Assembly: GCA_003696625.1 (NCBI GenBank)
Contig: RFGR01000132.1
Span: 1,909-65,908, forward strand
Direction: 5' to 3'
DNA from: Planctomycetota bacterium
GTDB taxonomy: Bacteria; Planctomycetota; UBA1135
DNA length: 64,000 bases
The notes under the pieces were generated by a model, which made no database searches, was not told the origin of the DNA, and was given only the letters and a program-made list of their open reading frames with translations. Below are positions 9,936 to 64,000 of this stretch, piece after piece (positions within the stretch are counted from its first letter, which is position 1; each line of letters begins with the position of its first letter). The translations under genes and the position numbers were made by a program.

Positions 9936-10068
9936 CGTGGTCGACAGCCGGGGCGGCGCCCGGAAACGGCGCCGCAAGCTGACGGAAGGGCGGGAGAAGT
10001 CTACCATAACGGGCTCCACGCCTTTCGGTAACGCCCCTTGGGGCAACGGCCTAGGCTCCGCCGCCGGA

Positions 10069-10962
10069 ATGTCCCGAACCCTCCTGCCGCCGCTCCTCCT
10101 GCTCGCCGCCGCCGCCGCCGCGGCCGCCCTGCCGCCGCCGGCGACGGCGCCCCGGCCGGCCTTCCCGGTCGGGCCGCCGGCCGGGGCGGCGGTGGCCTGG
10201 GAGGCCCGGCTCGGGGCCGACGCCCCGACCCCGCTCACTCCGGCGCTGGAACTCGGCCGCCGCCTGGACGGCGTTCTCAAGGACGAAGACCGGCACCGCT
10301 TCCGCTTCCAGCTCGAGGCCTACCTGGCCGGTCTCGGCCGGCGGCCGGACGCCGCCCGCCTTCCCTGGGCGGCCTGGCTCGAGCGCTGCCGCCTCGCCCA
10401 CCGTCGGGTCGCCCCCGGCCTGATGCGGGCCGCCGGTCAGGCGCTCGGGCCGGCGGCGATGGACCTGGCCTGGAGCGTCGACCGGCGGTCCTCTCCGGTC
10501 GAGCTGCGGGTGGCGGCGATGCAGGTCCTCTGGCGCCTCAAGCCGGTCGAAGGAGCGAACGCCGCCCAGAAGGCCCTGCGCGAGCGTCCCCGGCTCGACC
10601 TCCACGAGCGGGTGGTGGCCGAGGTCCTGGCGCCGGCGCCGGGGCCGCTGGCCGACGAACTCCTGATCGACGCCGCCGGCGCCGGCGACCGCGTGGCCGA
10701 ACGGGCCCGGCGGCTGGCCGTCCAGGCCCTCGGGCGCCGCCGGGTCGAGGCCGCCACCGGCGTCCTCGGGCAGATCCTCGCCTCAAGCCGGGGCGACGTC
10801 CTCCTGCGCAAGGCGGCCGGCGAGGCGCTGTATGCGATCGGCAGCCCGGCGGCGCTGCGCGCTATCCTGGCCGTGGACGACGTCGATCCCGGCGCCCAAC
10901 CGGTCTTCCACGCCTACCTCGACCAGCTTCGACAGCGGCTCGGCTATCCGCCGCTCGGATGA
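10069..10962 (+). CDS. secreted HEAT/PBS-lyase-type repeat protein, function unknown
   Basis: ATG at 10069, in frame with ORF 9571..10962; 297 aa. N-terminus MSRTLLPPLLLLAAAAAAAAL looks like a signal peptide. Repeated helical units: RRLAVQALGRRRVEAATGVLGQIL and RKAAGEALYAIGSPAALRAILAV. Divergent from lipoprotein D. Confidence 0.55.
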   Translation: MSRTLLPPLLLLAAAAAAAALPPPATAPRPAFPVGPPAGAAVAWEARLGADAPTPLTPALELGRRLDGVLKDEDRHRFRFQLEAYLAGLGRRPDAARLPWAAWLERCRLAHRRVAPGLMRAAGQALGPAAMDLAWSVDRRSSPVELRVAAMQVLWRLKPVEGANAAQKALRERPRLDLHERVVAEVLAPAPGPLADELLIDAAGAGDRVAERARRLAVQALGRRRVEAATGVLGQILASSRGDVLLRKAAGEALYAIGSPAALRAILAVDDVDPGAQPVFHAYLDQLRQRLGYPPLG

Positions 10963-39546: not shown

Positions 39547-39671
39547 CCGGCGGAGCCGGAGGCCCGGACGACCGCGGCACCCGGACCTCGCTCCTTAGGG
39601 CTGCTCCGTTCCCGGCCTGACCCGGTTCGGGGCGCGTCCGCCGCGCGGCGCCGGACCCCCGGCTCCGCCGG
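39547..39671 (-). ncRNA. ffs: signal recognition particle RNA (small 4.5S type)
   Basis: Read by eye on the minus strand. The ends form a 13-bp closing helix (CCGGCGGAGCCGG ... CCGGCUCCGCCGG). The apical region GGUCAGGCCG-GGAA-CGGAGCAGCC matches the conserved domain IV element (E. coli GGUCAGGUCC-GGAA-GGAAGCAGCC), including the GGAA tetraloop. The position just upstream of dnaX matches the known tadA-ffs-dnaX-ybaB-recR synteny. The ends are approximate. Confidence 0.8.
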
Positions 39672-39680
39672 CGGTCCGAA

Positions 39681-39768
<88 letters not shown>

Positions 39769-39811
39769 GTTCGATTTCGGCACAGATCGAACTCCCCGGC
39801 ATGAAGGGAGT

Positions 39812-39901
<90 letters not shown>

Positions 39902-39937
39902 GTTCGGGGCCGGATAGGATAGCGTCGCCGGCTCCGG

Positions 39938-40429
39938 TCAGCCGCGGCGGGCGCGGAAAAAGGCCTGCAACAGCGCCGCCGATTCCTCCGCCCGGACGCC
40001 GCCGCGCCAAGCCACGCGGTGGTTGAGGCCGGGCAGGTCGAGGAGCCGGGCCAGCGATTCGACCCCGCCGAACTTCGGGTCGGCCGCTCCGTAGACGACG
40101 CGGTCGACGCGGGCGTGGATCAGGGCGCCGGCGCACTGCAGGCAGGGCTCGAGGGTGCAGAACAGCTCGGCGCCCGGCAGCCGCTTCTCCCCCGCCGCCG
40201 CGAAGGCCTGGGTGAGGGCGATCATCTCGGCGTGGGCGGTCGGGTCGCCGAGCCGCTCGACCTGGTTCGCCCCGCGGCTGAGCAACCGGTCGCCGCGGAC
40301 GACGACGGCCCCGACCGGCACCTCGTCCCGGGCGGCCGCCTCGCGCGCCAGCCGCAGGGCCAGCGCCATGATGAGGTCGTCGCGTTCCTCCGGCCCGGCC
40401 GGCTGGCGGAGGGGAAAGAGGAGGCTCAA
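39938..40429 (-). CDS. tadA: tRNA-specific adenosine(34) deaminase
   Basis: Deaminase zinc motifs PTAHAEMIAL and LEPCLQCAG; N-terminal EVPVGAVVV. The longest ORF starts at TTG 40429, 9 nt after the tRNA-Arg 3' end. An ATG alternative lies at 40369. Confidence 0.88.
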   Translation of the reverse strand: MSLLFPLRQPAGPEERDDLIMALALRLAREAAARDEVPVGAVVVRGDRLLSRGANQVERLGDPTAHAEMIALTQAFAAAGEKRLPGAELFCTLEPCLQCAGALIHARVDRVVYGAADPKFGGVESLARLLDLPGLNHRVAWRGGVRAEESAALLQAFFRARRG

Positions 40430-40438
40430 GGGAGGGAA

Positions 40439-40515
40439 TGGTGCGCCCAGGAGGATTCGAACCCCCAGCCTCCTGATCCGTAGTCAGGTGCTCTATCCAG
40501 TTGAGCCATGGGCGC
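40439..40515 (-). tRNA. tRNA-Arg (anticodon ACG), CCA encoded
   Basis: The minus strand reads GCGCCCATGGCTCAACTGGATAGAGCACCTGACTACGGATCAGGAGGCTGGGGGTTCGAATCCTCCTGGGCGCACCA. Acceptor stem GCGCCCA/TGGGCGC; anticodon stem CCTGA/TCAGG with loop CTACGGA. Confidence 0.92.
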
Positions 40516-59663: not shown

Positions 59664-60308
59664 CTACTTCTTGACGCCGGTGCGGGCGGTGCGGACCTGG
59701 AGCAGGCCGTTGGGCGGACCGGGGACGCCGCCGCGGACCAGGAGCAGGCCGCGCTCGGGATCGACGCCCTCGACGGTCAGGTTCTTGACCGTCCGCCGGA
59801 CGGCGCCGTAGTGCTTGGCCATGCGGGTGCCCTTGAAGACCCGCCCCGGATAGGCGCAGGCGCCGATGGCGCCGGGCTGGCGGACGTTCATCGAGCCGTG
59901 GGTCTCGCTGCCGCGCCCGAAGCCGTGGGCCTTGATCGTGCCGGCGAAGCCGCGGCCCTTGGAGCGGCCGGTGACGTCGACCAGGTCACCGGGCTGGAAC
60001 TGCTCGACGGTCAGCTCCTGGCCCGGCTCCCAGCCGTCCACGGAGACGGTGCGGAACTCGCGCAGGACCCGGAAGGCCGGCACGCCGGCCTTCTCGGCCG
60101 CGACCCGTTGCGGCTTGCGGACGTGCTTGGCCCGGGCCGGGATGAAGCCGATCTGGACGGCGCAGTAGCCGTCCCGCTCCGGGGTGCGCAGGCCGGTGAC
60201 CGTGCACGGGCCGGCCTCGAGCACGGTGACCGGGACCACCGTGCCGTCCTCGCGGAAGATCTGGGTCATCCCCTTCTTCCGGGCGAGCAGGAACTTGATG
60301 TCGGACAT
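59664..60308 (-). CDS. rplC: 50S ribosomal protein L3
   Basis: 214 aa. Sequences LLARKKGMTQIF and GRSKGRGFAGTIKAHGF. Confidence 0.97.
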   Translation of the reverse strand: MSDIKFLLARKKGMTQIFREDGTVVPVTVLEAGPCTVTGLRTPERDGYCAVQIGFIPARAKHVRKPQRVAAEKAGVPAFRVLREFRTVSVDGWEPGQELTVEQFQPGDLVDVTGRSKGRGFAGTIKAHGFGRGSETHGSMNVRQPGAIGACAYPGRVFKGTRMAKHYGAVRRTVKNLTVEGVDPERGLLLVRGGVPGPPNGLLQVRTARTGVKK

Positions 60309-60389: not shown

Positions 60390-60695
<306 letters not shown>

Positions 60696-60797
60696 GGGGG
60701 GCGTGTGGGCACACAGCTAGCCTCGGCCTTCCCATCCGCCGCTTGCGCCGGCCGGTCCAGGAACAAAACCGAGGCTGGTCCCGAATTCGGGCCAAGC

Positions 60798-60825
60798 ATC
60801 TTACCAGCAAGGGGATGGAGGTCAA
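60798..60825 (-). promoter_or_regulatory. sigma-70-type promoter of the S10 operon
   Basis: The minus strand reads TTGACC - 16 nt - TAAGAT, with TGG immediately 5' of the -10 (extended -10 TGn). It lies about 100 nt upstream of the rpsJ ATG, in the 195-nt fusA-rpsJ gap. Confidence 0.5.
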
Positions 60826-60872
60826 GGCCCGGAGCACCGAAACCTCCCGGGCCGGGCCCGGAGCGACGGGCC

Positions 60873-60890
60873 GGCCGGCCCGGGCCGGCC
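60873..60890 (-). terminator. 18-nt perfect GC palindrome abutting the fusA stop codon (possible stem-loop/attenuator)
   Basis: GGCCGGCCCGGGCCGGCC is its own reverse complement. It starts 1 nt after the fusA TGA. No U-tract follows. Confidence 0.3.
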
Positions 60891-62954
60891 TCAGGCCCCG
60901 CCGGACAGGATTTCCCGGGCCCGGGCCGCCGGCACCGGGGCGTAGCCGAGAGGGGTGAGGGTGAATTCCCCCCGGCCCTGGGTCAGGCTGCGGAGCCGGG
61001 TCGAGTAGGCGAAGAGGGCCTCGAGCGGGGCGGCGGCCCGGATCCGGCCGAGGCCGTCGGCCAGATCCATCGCCTGGACCTCCGCCCGGCGGGCCTGGAG
61101 GTCGGCGAGGACCCCGCTCAAGAATTCTTCCGGCACCTCCAGGCCCAAGGCCATGAGCGGCTCGAGCAGGACGGTCCGGCCGTTCAGGGCCTCGTCAAGG
61201 GCCCGGCCGGCGGCCCCGAGAACCAGTTCGACCGGAGGCTCCTGGCCGGGCGGGTTCCAGGACACCTCCTCGAGGACGATTCGGAGCCGGGCCAGCGGGT
61301 ACCCGAGGTCGCCGCCGCCGCCGGCCAGGTCGGGGACGGCGAGAGCGAGGTCGTGGCGGAGGGCCGCGGACAGGCCGGACAGCCCCGGCCCCAGGACGAC
61401 CTCCGGCCGGGTGGAGTCGGTCGGCTCCAGCCGGACTCGGGCGGTGACGGCTTGCCGGCCGCCCTCCAGCGGCCGCTCGGCGGTCCCCGCGGCCTCGGCC
61501 GCGGTCCGGATCGTCTCGCGGTAGGCGACGATCGGCCGCCCGGCCCGGGCCCGGACCCGGAACTCCCGCTCCAGGCGGTGGAGGGCGATCTCGAGGTGGA
61601 GCTCCCCCATCCCGGCCAGGACCGCCTGCCCGGTCTCCTCGTCGATCTCCACCTCCAGGGTCGGATCCTCCCGGTCGAGCACGGCCAGGGCGGAAAGAAG
61701 CTTGTCGCGGTCGGCCAGCGAGGCCGGCTCGACGGTCTGGCGGATCACCGGTTCGGGGAAGTCGATCGGCTCGAGGGCGATCTCGTGCCCCTTGGCGAAC
61801 AGGGTGTCGCCGGTCCGGGCCTTCTTCAGACCCGGCACGACCACGATCTCGCCCGGGCCGGCCCGTTCGACCCGCTCGCGGTGGTCGGCGTGCATGCGCC
61901 AGATCTGGGAGATCCGTTCGTTGCCGCGAACCCGGGCGTTGCCGACCGCCATCCCCTCGCGCAGTTCGCCGGAGTAGACCCGCAGATAGCAGAGGTCGCC
62001 GTGGGCCTCGTGGAAGACCTTGAAGACCAGGGCGGTCAGCGGCGCCTCGGGGTCGGCCGGCCGCTCGAGCACGGTGTCCTCGTCGCCGGGCAGGTGGCCC
62101 CGCACCGGCGGCCGGTCGCCGGGGGCGGGCAGCCAGTCCACCACCGCCTCGAGCAGCGGCTGGATCCCCTGGTGATGGAGGGCCGAGCCGGCCAAGACCG
62201 GGACCAGCCGGCGCGAGAGGGTACCGAGACGCAGGCCGCGGCGGAGGAGATCGGCCTCGAGGTCGCCGTCCTCGAGCCAGGCCGCCAGCAGCTCGTCGTC
62301 CAGCTCCGCCACCGCCTCGCAGAGCTCGGCGCGGGCCTGCTCGGCCGCCGGCCGCAGGTCGTCGGGCAGCGGCCGGCGGTGGACCTCGGCCCCCTGGTCC
62401 TCCTCCGACCAGGTCAGCAGCTCCAGCTCGAGCAGGTCGACGACGCCGGCGAACTCGCGCCCGGCGCCGACCGGCAGCTGGACCGGCACCGCGTTGGCCC
62501 CGACCCGGTCGCGCAGGGAGGCGACGGCGGCGGCGAAATCGGCGCCCTGCCGGTCCATCTTGTTAACGAAGGCCAGCCAGGGCACTTCGTAGCGGGCGGC
62601 CTGGCGAAGGACCGTCTCGGTCTGGGCCTGGACCCCGGCGACGGCGCAGAGGACGACGACGGCGCCGTCGAGGACCCGCAGCGAGCGACTGACCTCGGCC
62701 GTGAAGTCGACGTGGCCGGGGGTATCGATCAACTGGATGACGTGGTCGCGCCAGGGGCAGCGGGTGGCGGCGGCGGTGATCGTGATGCCCCGCTCCCGCT
62801 CCTCCTCCATCCAGTCCATCACCGTGTTGCCGAGGTGGACCTCCCCCATCCGATGCTCGACGCCGGTGTAGTAGAGGATCCGCTCGGTGACGGTGGTCTT
62901 GCCGGCGTCGATGTGGGCGACGATGCCGATGTTGCGGATCCGACCGAGGTCCAT
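60891..62954 (-). CDS. fusA: elongation factor G
   Basis: ATG at 62954 (residue 143 of ORF 60891..63380); 687 aa. N-terminus [31 protein letters not shown], then [13 protein letters not shown] and [10 protein letters not shown]. Confidence 0.95.
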
Positions 62955-62965
62955 GGCGGCAGATT

Positions 62966-63430
62966 CTAGGCCGGGAGCCGGTCGGCGTTGCGCTCCAGCC
63001 ACTCCCGGCGCCAGTGGTAGCCGTCGAGCAGAGAGTCGTCCCGGCACCCGAACAGGGCGAGGGCGGCGTGCAGGGCCTCGACGCTGGCGAGACCGTTGCC
63101 CGGGTCGGGATAGTCCCGCGAGCGGCGGGGATAGGCGGTCTCCAGGCCGGAGGGCAGGGCGCGGCGGTGGAGCCGGCCGGACACGCCGCGCAGCACCCGG
63201 GGCAGGTCGCGCCAGGAAGAATCGACCAGGAGCAGCGGCCGGCCGGCGTCGGCCGGCCCGAGCGGCTCCCCCGCGGGATGGAGGAGGGTGACCTCCCCCA
63301 CCTCGATCCGGTCGCCGATCCGGCAGCGGATCCAGCGCAGGGGCAGATCGACCCGCTCGCGCAGCGGCGTCAGGCTGCACTTGCGCGGGTCCTCCTTGGA
63401 CAGCCGGAGGAGAATGATCTCGGGCGGCAC
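62966..63430 (-). CDS. Tsr3/DTW-superfamily protein (putative aminocarboxypropyl transferase) embedded in the str operon
   Basis: 154 aa with GTG start. It ends 11 nt before fusA. Segments are collinear with what I recall of archaeal Tsr3: [11 protein letters not shown] (cf. DPKKCTG), [15 protein letters not shown] (cf. LDCSW / DTW), [28 protein letters not shown] and [15 protein letters not shown]. Confidence 0.65.
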
Positions 63431-63450
63431 CCGGCCAGGATAAGGCCGCC

Positions 63451-63480
63451 GGGGGGCCGATCCGTCCGGATCGGCCCCCC
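63451..63480 (-). promoter_or_regulatory. 30-nt perfect inverted repeat (14-bp arms) between rpsG and the Tsr3-like gene
   Basis: GGGGGGCCGATCCG-TC-CGGATCGGCCCCCC, read directly in the 70-nt gap. It may be an attenuator, processing site or terminator. The tract that follows has few U residues. Confidence 0.35.
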
Positions 63481-63500
63481 GGCGGCGGTGGGACGATGCC

Positions 63501-63977
63501 CTAGAAGTTGGCGAAGTGGCTGTAGGCCTTGTTGGCCTCGGCCATGCGGTGGACGTTCTCCTTCCACTGCACCGAGGCGCCGGTGTTGTTGCAGGCGTCG
63601 ACGAACTCGGAAGCCAAGCGCTGGGCCATCGGCATGCCCTTTTTCTTGCGGGCGTTGTTGACGATCCAGCGGATGGCCAGGGCCTGGGAGCGCTTGGCGC
63701 TGACCTCGCGCGGCACCTGGTAGTTCGAGCCGCCGACCCGCTTGGAGCGGACCTCGACCGAGGGGCGGACGTTCTCGAGGGCGGTGACGAAGACCTGGTC
63801 CGGCGGCACGCCGTCGAGCCGCTGGCTGGCCCGGTCGACCGCCTCGTAGAAGATCCGCATGGCCACGGACTTCTTGCCGCGGCTCATGATCTGGTTGATG
63901 AACTTGCTGGCCAGGATCGACCCGAAGCGCGGGTCCGGCTTGACGTACTTGGCGGTGGACTTGTAGCTGCGGGGCAT
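63501..63977 (-). CDS. rpsG: 30S ribosomal protein S7
   Basis: 158 aa starting MPRSYKSTAKYVKPDPRFGSILASKFINQIMSRGKKS. Confidence 0.97.
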   Translation of the reverse strand: MPRSYKSTAKYVKPDPRFGSILASKFINQIMSRGKKSVAMRIFYEAVDRASQRLDGVPPDQVFVTALENVRPSVEVRSKRVGGSNYQVPREVSAKRSQALAIRWIVNNARKKKGMPMAQRLASEFVDACNNTGASVQWKENVHRMAEANKAYSHFANF

Positions 63978-63979
63978 GG

Positions 63980-64000
63980 CTACTTGCCGCGGCGGGTGCC
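63980..64000 (-). CDS. rpsL: 30S ribosomal protein S12, last 6 codons only (window edge)
   Basis: The minus strand reads ...GTRRGK-TAG, ending 2 nt before rpsG. The identification rests mainly on the rpsL-rpsG synteny. Confidence 0.55.
   Translation of the reverse strand, partial: GTRRGK

Follow-up and report, generated by a model that had tools for sequence, protein, structure and literature searches.

A Tsr3-like gene of the pc1599 family between rpsG and fusA in a member of the Planctomycetota: a candidate aminocarboxypropyl transferase for RNA of the translation apparatus

Which molecule is modified by an enzyme whose nearest characterised relative acts on the ribosomes of archaea and eukaryotes, and whose gene lies in the str operon of a bacterium? 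The question is raised by a gene, here called tsr3-like, on the reverse strand of a 64,000-nt stretch of contig RFGR01000132.1 from a Planctomycetota bacterium (assembly GCA_003696625.1). That stretch is the window, and positions given without an L or P prefix refer to its coordinates, 1–64,000. Modifications of the type 3-(3-amino-3-carboxypropyl)uridine (acp3U) are found in loops of transfer RNA (tRNA) and, in archaea and eukaryotes, at the ribosomal P site; TapT, a tRNA enzyme, is to our knowledge the only characterised enzyme of this type in bacteria. A sequence-only reading of the window had proposed that the gene encodes a Tsr3-like protein of the TDD superfamily and that its product might transfer the aminocarboxypropyl (acp) group to 16S ribosomal RNA (rRNA) at the position equivalent to Escherichia coli 966. 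A Tsr3-like gene in a str operon is borne out by the present analysis; the specific product at 966 is not. From sequence comparisons and a structural model we favour, with some reserve, a stand-alone SPOUT-like enzyme of about 150 residues, belonging to the pc1599 branch of the TDD superfamily, that would transfer acp to an RNA used in translation, though not at the canonical Tsr3 site.

The gene at 62966–63430 is real and conserved. Its 154-residue product contains all the motifs attributed to it, including EDPRKCS (residues 13–19), DSSW (70–73), HRRALP (88–93), TAYPR (98–102), a segment starting at S116 and running to residue 128 and another starting at Y138 and running to residue 148. With the window protein as query, 422 homologous clusters at 90% identity were found among 5.8 billion proteins, and 2,255 such clusters when a more distant relative served as query. 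Searching 1.84 billion cluster representatives with a profile returned 462 clusters at 50% identity (E ≤ 0.001), and a scan of one genome per species located the gene in 349 species. A protein from a Planctomycetaceae metagenome-assembled genome (MAG) used as search seed gave uncultured matches only, and an Opitutales seed led to cultured carriers. The relatives are mostly 145–190 aa long. Invariant in 79 of them are E13, C18, D61, D70, W73, R90, P101-R102, S104, D109-P110, G113-L114 and E118-A119-L120, and S19 is at least 90% conserved.

Profile and structure searches place the protein nearer to Tsr3 than to TapT and other DTW proteins, in agreement with the sequence-only reading. Its matches include Pfam PF04034, the C-terminal domain of Tsr3 (E 8e-6), and NCBIfam DUF367 (E 8e-9); it gives no match to Pfam DTW at E ≤ 10 and aligns as a single sequence with the PDB Tsr3 structure 5apg over residues 2–144 (E 1.8e-4). 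PF04034 was matched (E < 0.01) by 76 of the 79 relatives and DTW (PF03942) by two of the 79, at E ≥ 0.0015. When the 79 relatives were combined into a profile and compared with the PDB, only Tsr3 was retrieved (5apg, E 8e-11; 5ap8, E 2e-4), and no TapT appeared at E ≤ 1, although the library holds TapT structures. An AlphaFold2 model of the window protein (pLDDT 90.9, pTM 0.87) had its best Foldseek matches in the Tsr3 structures 5apg (TM-score 0.73, E 9e-8, 28% identity) and 5ap8. The next class followed at E > 0.07, with TapT at a TM-score of 0.55 (E 0.15), and the weak matches included TrmD, Trm10 and, at rank 16, Sfm1. The model thus predicts a Tsr3-type SPOUT-like fold, and on sequence and predicted structure the nearest characterised relative is archaeal Tsr3, not the tRNA-specific TapT.

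The residues on which Tsr3 depends can be followed into the window protein. [quoted passage not shown] T19, D70 and W73 align with S19, D70 and W73 of the window protein, and the RNA-binding K17 and R91 are retained as K17 and R90, the K22 equivalent being the sole loss. D70, S72 and W73 constitute the D/E-x-S/T-W motif of the window protein, in which D70 and W73 are invariant. TapT has a basic zinc-binding N-terminal extension with the pattern CxxCxxxxxxCxC and lacks the Tsr3-type basic residues (PMC7026641). A zinc-binding N-terminal domain of this type was not found in the window protein, which begins four residues ahead of the first core strand and has cysteines only at C18, C36 and C129, with no CxxC.

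In 2014, Burroughs and Aravind divided the TDD superfamily into five families, among them pc1599, with representatives in Planctomycetes, Verrucomicrobia and Chlamydiae (PVC) (PMC4275035). The pc1599 members listed there measure 148–235 aa and include Caka_1800 (Coraliomargarita akajimensis), pc1599 and Plabr_2251. The same work predicted a nuclease (RNase) role for TDD domains and gave gene neighbourhoods for TSR3 and DTWD2 only, none for pc1599 (PMC4275035); Tsr3, TapT, DTWD1 and DTWD2 were later shown to be acp transferases. A C. akajimensis protein of 150 aa (P0434), taken to be Caka_1800 from the matching species and length rather than from a locus tag, shares 49% identity with the window protein (E 7e-36). 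The window protein is also 35% identical to P0158, a fusion protein in the same cluster as P0159, which is the member from a Chlamydiae MAG, and members from Planctomycetota, Opitutales and Chlamydiae come together under one HMMER profile, at E < 1e-25 among the best 150 of its 462 matches. That only 462 clusters were reached at E ≤ 0.001 suggests that canonical Tsr3 families are largely excluded from the set, the weaker matches being judged by count alone. With its PVC-centred distribution and its stand-alone domain of about 150–180 aa, the window gene is, as judged from sequence, a member of pc1599. It does not represent a new family, pc1599 having been catalogued in 2014, and the view that bacterial TDD proteins are all of the TapT type overlooked it (PMC4275035). 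We found no paper characterising any pc1599 member, and the name given to these proteins in public databases is '16S/18S rRNA aminocarboxypropyltransferase' or else 'pre-rRNA-processing protein TSR3'.

Position 966 of archaeal 16S rRNA is a U. No rRNA gene lies within the window, and the check for a U at this position was made in relatives of the window organism, all of which gave a negative answer. In two Opitutales loci (L055 and L213), the 16S gene is physically linked to a family member, 0.5–0.7 kb downstream of it, and helix 31 reads UUCGAUGCAACGCGAA, identical to E. coli and with G966. A wider survey used a 32-nt Planctomycetes signature, which the window's own lineage may lack, and gathered 120 metagenome 16S sequences: 94 DNA-assembled contigs, 90 of which cover 966, and 26 OBAT01/OBEP01 records. 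G966 was present in 89 of the 90 DNA-derived Planctomycetes-type sequences, versus G in 11, T in nine and A in six of the OBAT01/OBEP01 records (Fisher p = 4e-11). A search for homologues of S7, EF-G, S10, L3 and the Tsr3-like protein in the 120 16S loci by tblastn gave no match.

The apparent U966 (T or A calls) was rejected as support for a Tsr3-type target: all 15 such calls fall in OBAT01/OBEP01, the DNA-derived sequences have G in 89 of 90, and pairs of complementary DNA (cDNA) sequences that are 99.2% identical disagree at 966. OBEP01 is documented as the set of Karst et al., obtained by reverse transcription of rRNA, and from its identical behaviour we infer that OBAT01 is a sister set. 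Since T and A occur only in reverse-transcription-derived records, they are the signature of a modified base and not of a genomic U. When cDNA and DNA were compared at all positions, 966 was the top outlier and 1498 the second, the latter being non-U in six of 25 cDNA reads versus one of the 67 DNA reads with a base there (66 of 67 U). U1498 in E. coli carries 3-methyluridine (m3U) made by the SPOUT enzyme RsmE. The 966 signal was also considered as a sign of an unusual G modification and set aside as probably ordinary, because in chloroplast 16S plain N2-methylguanosine (m2G) at the 966 site already gives the strongest misincorporation. As read from these sequences, the G at 966 of Planctomycetes-type 16S is modified, as in other bacteria, and for the Planctomycetes-type set the cDNA signals are probably ordinary m2G966 and m3U1498. 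In public 16S reference sets, the modification footprints at 966 and 1498 now look like differences in base. A target shifted to U965 was dismissed as well, since this position, a U in E. coli and Opitutales, is A or G in Planctomycetes-type 16S and hence not conserved. With G at 966 and a variable base at 965, helix 31 is therefore without a conserved uridine.

The genomic contexts of the family were compared across 80 genome loci (L001–L080) from Planctomycetota and Opitutales. An S7 gene lies < 300 nt upstream and an EF-G gene < 400 nt downstream of tsr3-like in 55 of the 80, which confirms that the rpsG–tsr3-like–fusA arrangement is conserved in relatives, and this order holds for Tsr3-like protein identities from 79% down to 47%. 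An EF-G match < 400 nt downstream occurs in 62 of the 80, and the loci without the full order are mostly contig ends or have an extra intervening gene. In one Planctomycetota MAG (L037, 5511–6456), tsr3-like keeps rpsG and has rpsJ within 190 nt downstream; there is no EF-G match between tsr3-like and rpsJ, and fusA must be elsewhere. In L005, rpsJ is only ~690 nt away, yet an EF-G match is found < 400 nt downstream.

Two further contexts link the family to translation. In Opitutales, tsr3-like lies 0.5–2 kb upstream of a 16S gene on the same strand in L055, L043, L071 and L213 (the cultured strain CK1056) and is the last protein gene ahead of the rRNA operon. Promoter-like boxes of the TTGAC type recur in the 0.5–0.7 kb spacers of L055 and L213, and the gap in L071 is about 2 kb. 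In C. akajimensis-type contigs, the assembly ends ~0.3–0.4 kb past tsr3-like, as expected ahead of an rRNA repeat, and the upstream neighbour is a Cys/Met-metabolism enzyme gene, not cmk. The other context is a gene fusion: three 50%-identity clusters (P0158, P0169 and P0254) consist of RnpA(PF00825)–TDD proteins, with PF00825 matched at E 4e-24 to 7e-13. In two of the three fusion loci (L081 and L217) the fusion gene comes immediately after rpmH and thus fills the place of the cell's own rnpA. The hosts of these fusions are probably chlamydia-like, low-GC bacteria. The str-operon, rRNA-upstream and RnpA-fusion contexts appear to be previously unreported.

A subgroup stands in an archaeal context (L088, 678–1157; also L089 and L090; 36% GC), with genes for Rpr2, PAC2 and a PIN-KH ATPase nearby. 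The L088 gene is divergent from that for Rpr2, an archaeal RNase P subunit, and its product is 37% identical to the window protein; this subgroup suggests transfer between archaea and PVC bacteria. In a Brocadiaceae-labelled MAG (L080, 1829–3342), tsr3-like comes directly after a gene for a family-9 glycosyltransferase (GT9), a heptosyltransferase. P0125 was called as a single GT9–TDD protein of 522 aa, which may be either a genuine fusion or a read-through in gene calling.

Within the window, the gene order is rpsG–tsr3-like–fusA–rpsJ–rplC, with no tuf between fusA and rpsJ (Table 1). The TAG stop codon of tsr3-like occupies 62966–62968 and the fusA ATG is at 62954, leaving the gap of 11 nt that the sequence-only reading had described; the position downstream of S7 was confirmed too. 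The S12 identity of the gene before rpsG is presumed from str-operon order, and its stop codon stands 2 nt ahead of the rpsG start. In related loci, S7 matches of 58–88% identity lie immediately upstream of tsr3-like. The spacer between the rpsG stop (63501) and tsr3-like measures 70 nt and contains a GC-rich hairpin with a predicted folding free energy of −60.5 kcal/mol (z −5.2), which none of 200 shuffled sequences equalled. The window hairpin has no clear U-run. Equivalent GC hairpins occur in most related rpsG–tsr3-like spacers (L001–L070), often followed by a U-run. It is a possible terminator or attenuator, or an mRNA-stability element, and its place suggests that it would split rpsL–rpsG from tsr3-like–fusA within the str operon. 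With the hairpin behind rpsG, the coupling of tsr3-like to fusA therefore seems closer than that to rpsG. Elsewhere in the window, three tRNA genes and a small signal recognition particle RNA (Rfam RF00169, 58 bits) are clustered at 39558–40515 on the reverse strand.

Table 1. Coordinates of tsr3-like, its neighbours in the window and family members in other loci
Feature	Position	Strand	Remarks
tsr3-like gene (pc1599-family TDD domain)	62966..63430	-	GTG start, 154 aa; predicted SAM-dependent acp transferase
Hairpin in rpsG–tsr3-like spacer	63445..63486	-	Perfect 19-bp stem, GC-rich
rpsG (ribosomal protein S7)	63501..63977	-	158 aa; open reading frame, named from sequence and conserved gene order
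3' end of gene before rpsG, probably rpsL (S12)	63980..64000	-	21 bases, ends ...GTRRGK*, clipped by window end
fusA (elongation factor G, EF-G)	60891..62954	-	687 aa; open reading frame and N-terminus
fusA–rpsJ spacer	60696-60890		195 nt; sigma-70-like promoter match 60825-60798; terminator-like hairpin 60784-60769
rpsJ (S10), first gene of S10 operon	60390..60695	-	Open reading frame; 69-98% identical matches in related loci
rplC (L3)	59664..60308	-	Open reading frame; matches in related loci
tsr3-like, L055	5995-6432
16S gene, L055	7095-8629
tsr3-like, L213 (CK1056)	10001-10486
16S gene, L213 (CK1056)	from about 10975
RnpA–TDD fusion gene, L081	6301-7092
RnpA–TDD fusion gene, L083	6001-6927
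RnpA–TDD fusion gene, L217	472-1314

Transfer of acp from SAM to a uridine in RNA is the best-supported chemistry for this enzyme and, going by the conserved catalytic apparatus, a reasonably probable one. By analogy with Tsr3 and TapT, SAM would be bound with its methyl group buried against Trp73 and Leu76, leaving the acp arm exposed. Asp70 would take the N3 proton of a flipped-out uridine, the deprotonated uridine would attack the gamma-carbon of acp, and the reaction would leave acp3U in the RNA and release 5'-methylthioadenosine. The basic residues R9, K17, R74, R90 and R102 may hold the RNA. Because tsr3-like is translationally adjacent to fusA and stands behind the strong hairpin that follows rpsL–rpsG, the enzyme would be made together with the translation machinery, and because 966 is G in every related bacterium checked, its substrate would not be the canonical Tsr3 site. 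S7/EF-G, the position upstream of 16S and the RnpA fusion are three independent contexts linked to translation. Several observations nevertheless weigh against our reading. Although its E-values are significant, the window protein does not reach the curated cut-offs of the families that it matches (PF04034, 26.0 versus 29.9 bits; NF002621, 35.4 versus 152 bits; NF053630, 27 versus 300). A scan for reverse-transcription signatures at conserved U positions found none besides U1498 in a small sample not tied to carriers of the gene. Some members have unrelated neighbourhoods, with genes for a lipopolysaccharide heptosyltransferase (L080, P0125), ispG (L087) or thymidine kinase (L084). The contexts also disagree on the substrate, the rRNA-adjacent position and S7 fitting rRNA and the RnpA fusion fitting tRNA.

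Between these substrates we lean slightly to a tRNA or pre-tRNA, a distinctly possible target though short of a probable one, which would receive acp3U in the variable loop or D-loop as from TapT, DTWD1 and DTWD2. The RnpA–TDD fusion, which replaces the plain RNase P protein in the rpmH–rnpA operon, is the only physical coupling seen, the archaeal-type member adjoins Rpr2, the canonical rRNA target is lost, and for the Chlamydia-type members the score against the DTW profile is equally good or better. The gene for a SPOUT tRNA enzyme can, moreover, sit inside a ribosomal-protein operon, as trmD does. With this precedent, the operon position, which had been put forward as an argument for a ribosome-directed role, cannot tell an rRNA enzyme from a tRNA enzyme. 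Among bacterial TDD enzymes, all those characterised so far have tRNA as their substrate (PMC7026641, PMC6895100), and TapT orthologues have been reported in five phyla, none of them PVC. A tRNA substrate sits less easily with a protein that is closer to Tsr3 than to TapT, has only three cysteines and no TapT-like zinc-binding N-terminal domain, and conserves Tsr3-type RNA-binding residues that TapT lacks. These same features, namely Tsr3 as nearest relative, the minimal single-domain architecture and the conserved K17 and R90, speak for a small-subunit rRNA nucleotide other than U966, for example U1498, as do the place in the str operon, the position just upstream of 16S in at least four Opitutales genomes and the reverse-transcription signature at U1498. 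We consider such a target doubtful all the same: ordinary m3U would give the same signature at 1498, no other conserved U stands out, the RnpA fusion would be hard to explain, and we know of no acp-nucleotide reported in bacterial rRNA. A ribosome-directed enzyme that places acp at a non-canonical 16S site, such as acp3U1498 in place of m3U or the N1 of G966, which is chemically analogous to the N3 of U, seems to us rather unlikely.

The proposal with which the analysis began, a genuine orthologue of Tsr3 whose product would be acp3U, or a derivative of it, at helix-31 position 966 of its host's 16S, is by now very improbable. In its favour, no characterised protein is closer in sequence and fold than Tsr3, and the gene follows rpsG, whose product is needed for RsmD to reach G966, helix 31 being modified on S7-bound particles. 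The survey signature may also miss the 16S of the window lineage, and the archaeal-context subgroup (L088) exists, U being the base at 966 in archaeal 16S. On the other side stand G966 in the two 16S genes with a physical link to family members, the G in 89 of the 90 DNA-derived sequences, among which carriers of U966 should have shown up several times, and the confinement of T and A to reverse-transcription-derived records, as for a modified G. An activity other than acp transfer, whether of a SPOUT methyltransferase (of the m3U or 1-methylguanosine type), a nuclease or a non-catalytic assembly factor, is improbable. The SPOUT fold mostly serves methyl transfer, TrmD and Trm10 are among the weak fold matches, and an RNase role was the prediction of Burroughs and Aravind, but D-x-S/T-W is invariant, including the Trp that forces the acp-exposing pose of SAM, and every characterised TDD member (Tsr3, TapT, DTWD1 and DTWD2) is an acp transferase. 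Least expected of all is a protein of the operon as the target, be it EF-G, S7 or S12. The closeness of fusA would fit it, a SPOUT protein methyltransferase does exist (Sfm1, the weak match noted above), and diphthamide, a modification derived from acp, occurs on the EF-2 of archaea and eukaryotes. Yet the gene persists without fusA beside it (L037), next to rRNA operons and fused to rnpA, its conserved basic residues match the RNA-binding ones of Tsr3, and no TDD enzyme is known to us to act on a protein. An acp transferase for RNA of the translation apparatus is the reading that we retain.

These proteins form a large, uncharacterised bacterial branch nearest to an rRNA enzyme, with > 2,000 clusters at 90% identity and hundreds of PVC species, and their hosts lack the Tsr3 target base wherever it was checked. 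The TSR3-type names in databases are therefore probably wrong for these bacteria, at least about the site. Given three contexts and several carriers in culture, among them C. akajimensis DSM 45221, Puniceicoccales strain CK1056, Rubinisphaera brasiliensis, Gimesia maris and Parachlamydia, the substrate question is directly testable. Should acp be found on 16S at another site, this would be the first report of an acp-modified nucleotide from a bacterial ribosome, and the nucleoside itself might be new.

Compared with known systems, the window protein resembles Tsr3 (5apg, 5ap8) in its D-x-S-W motif, the Ser/Thr at position 19, the K17/R91 equivalents, the minimal single-domain size of the archaeal enzymes and the association with ribosomal gene clusters. 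It differs in being only 19–28% identical in Foldseek alignments and below the curated cut-offs, in having TAYPR and DP..GLAS.EAL where Tsr3 has AANP..YG...LS(S/T).EA, and in that its family's hosts have G, not U, at 16S 966 where checked, so that the substrate nucleotide of Tsr3 is absent. With TapT/YfiP, the DTWD2-type tRNA acp3U47 transferase (9kyt), it shares the TDD superfamily, the predicted chemistry and the bacterial host, and the RNase P fusion of some family members suggests a link to tRNA. In contrast, identity to TapT is 12–14% with TM-scores of 0.51–0.55, DTW is not matched, the ~70-aa N-terminal CxxC...CxC zinc domain is missing and the Tsr3-type basic residues that TapT lacks are kept. 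RsmD (m2G966) and RsmE (m3U1498) act in the ribosomal neighbourhood modified by Tsr3, and RsmE is likewise a SPOUT enzyme acting on the N3 of a uridine; both, however, are methyltransferases and not TDD members, and this analysis gave no sign that tsr3-like replaces either of them. With the pc1599 family the window protein agrees in phyla, size, stand-alone domain and relation to TSR3, with no difference at the family level, and what is added here to the description of that family are its str-operon, rRNA-adjacent and RnpA-fusion contexts.

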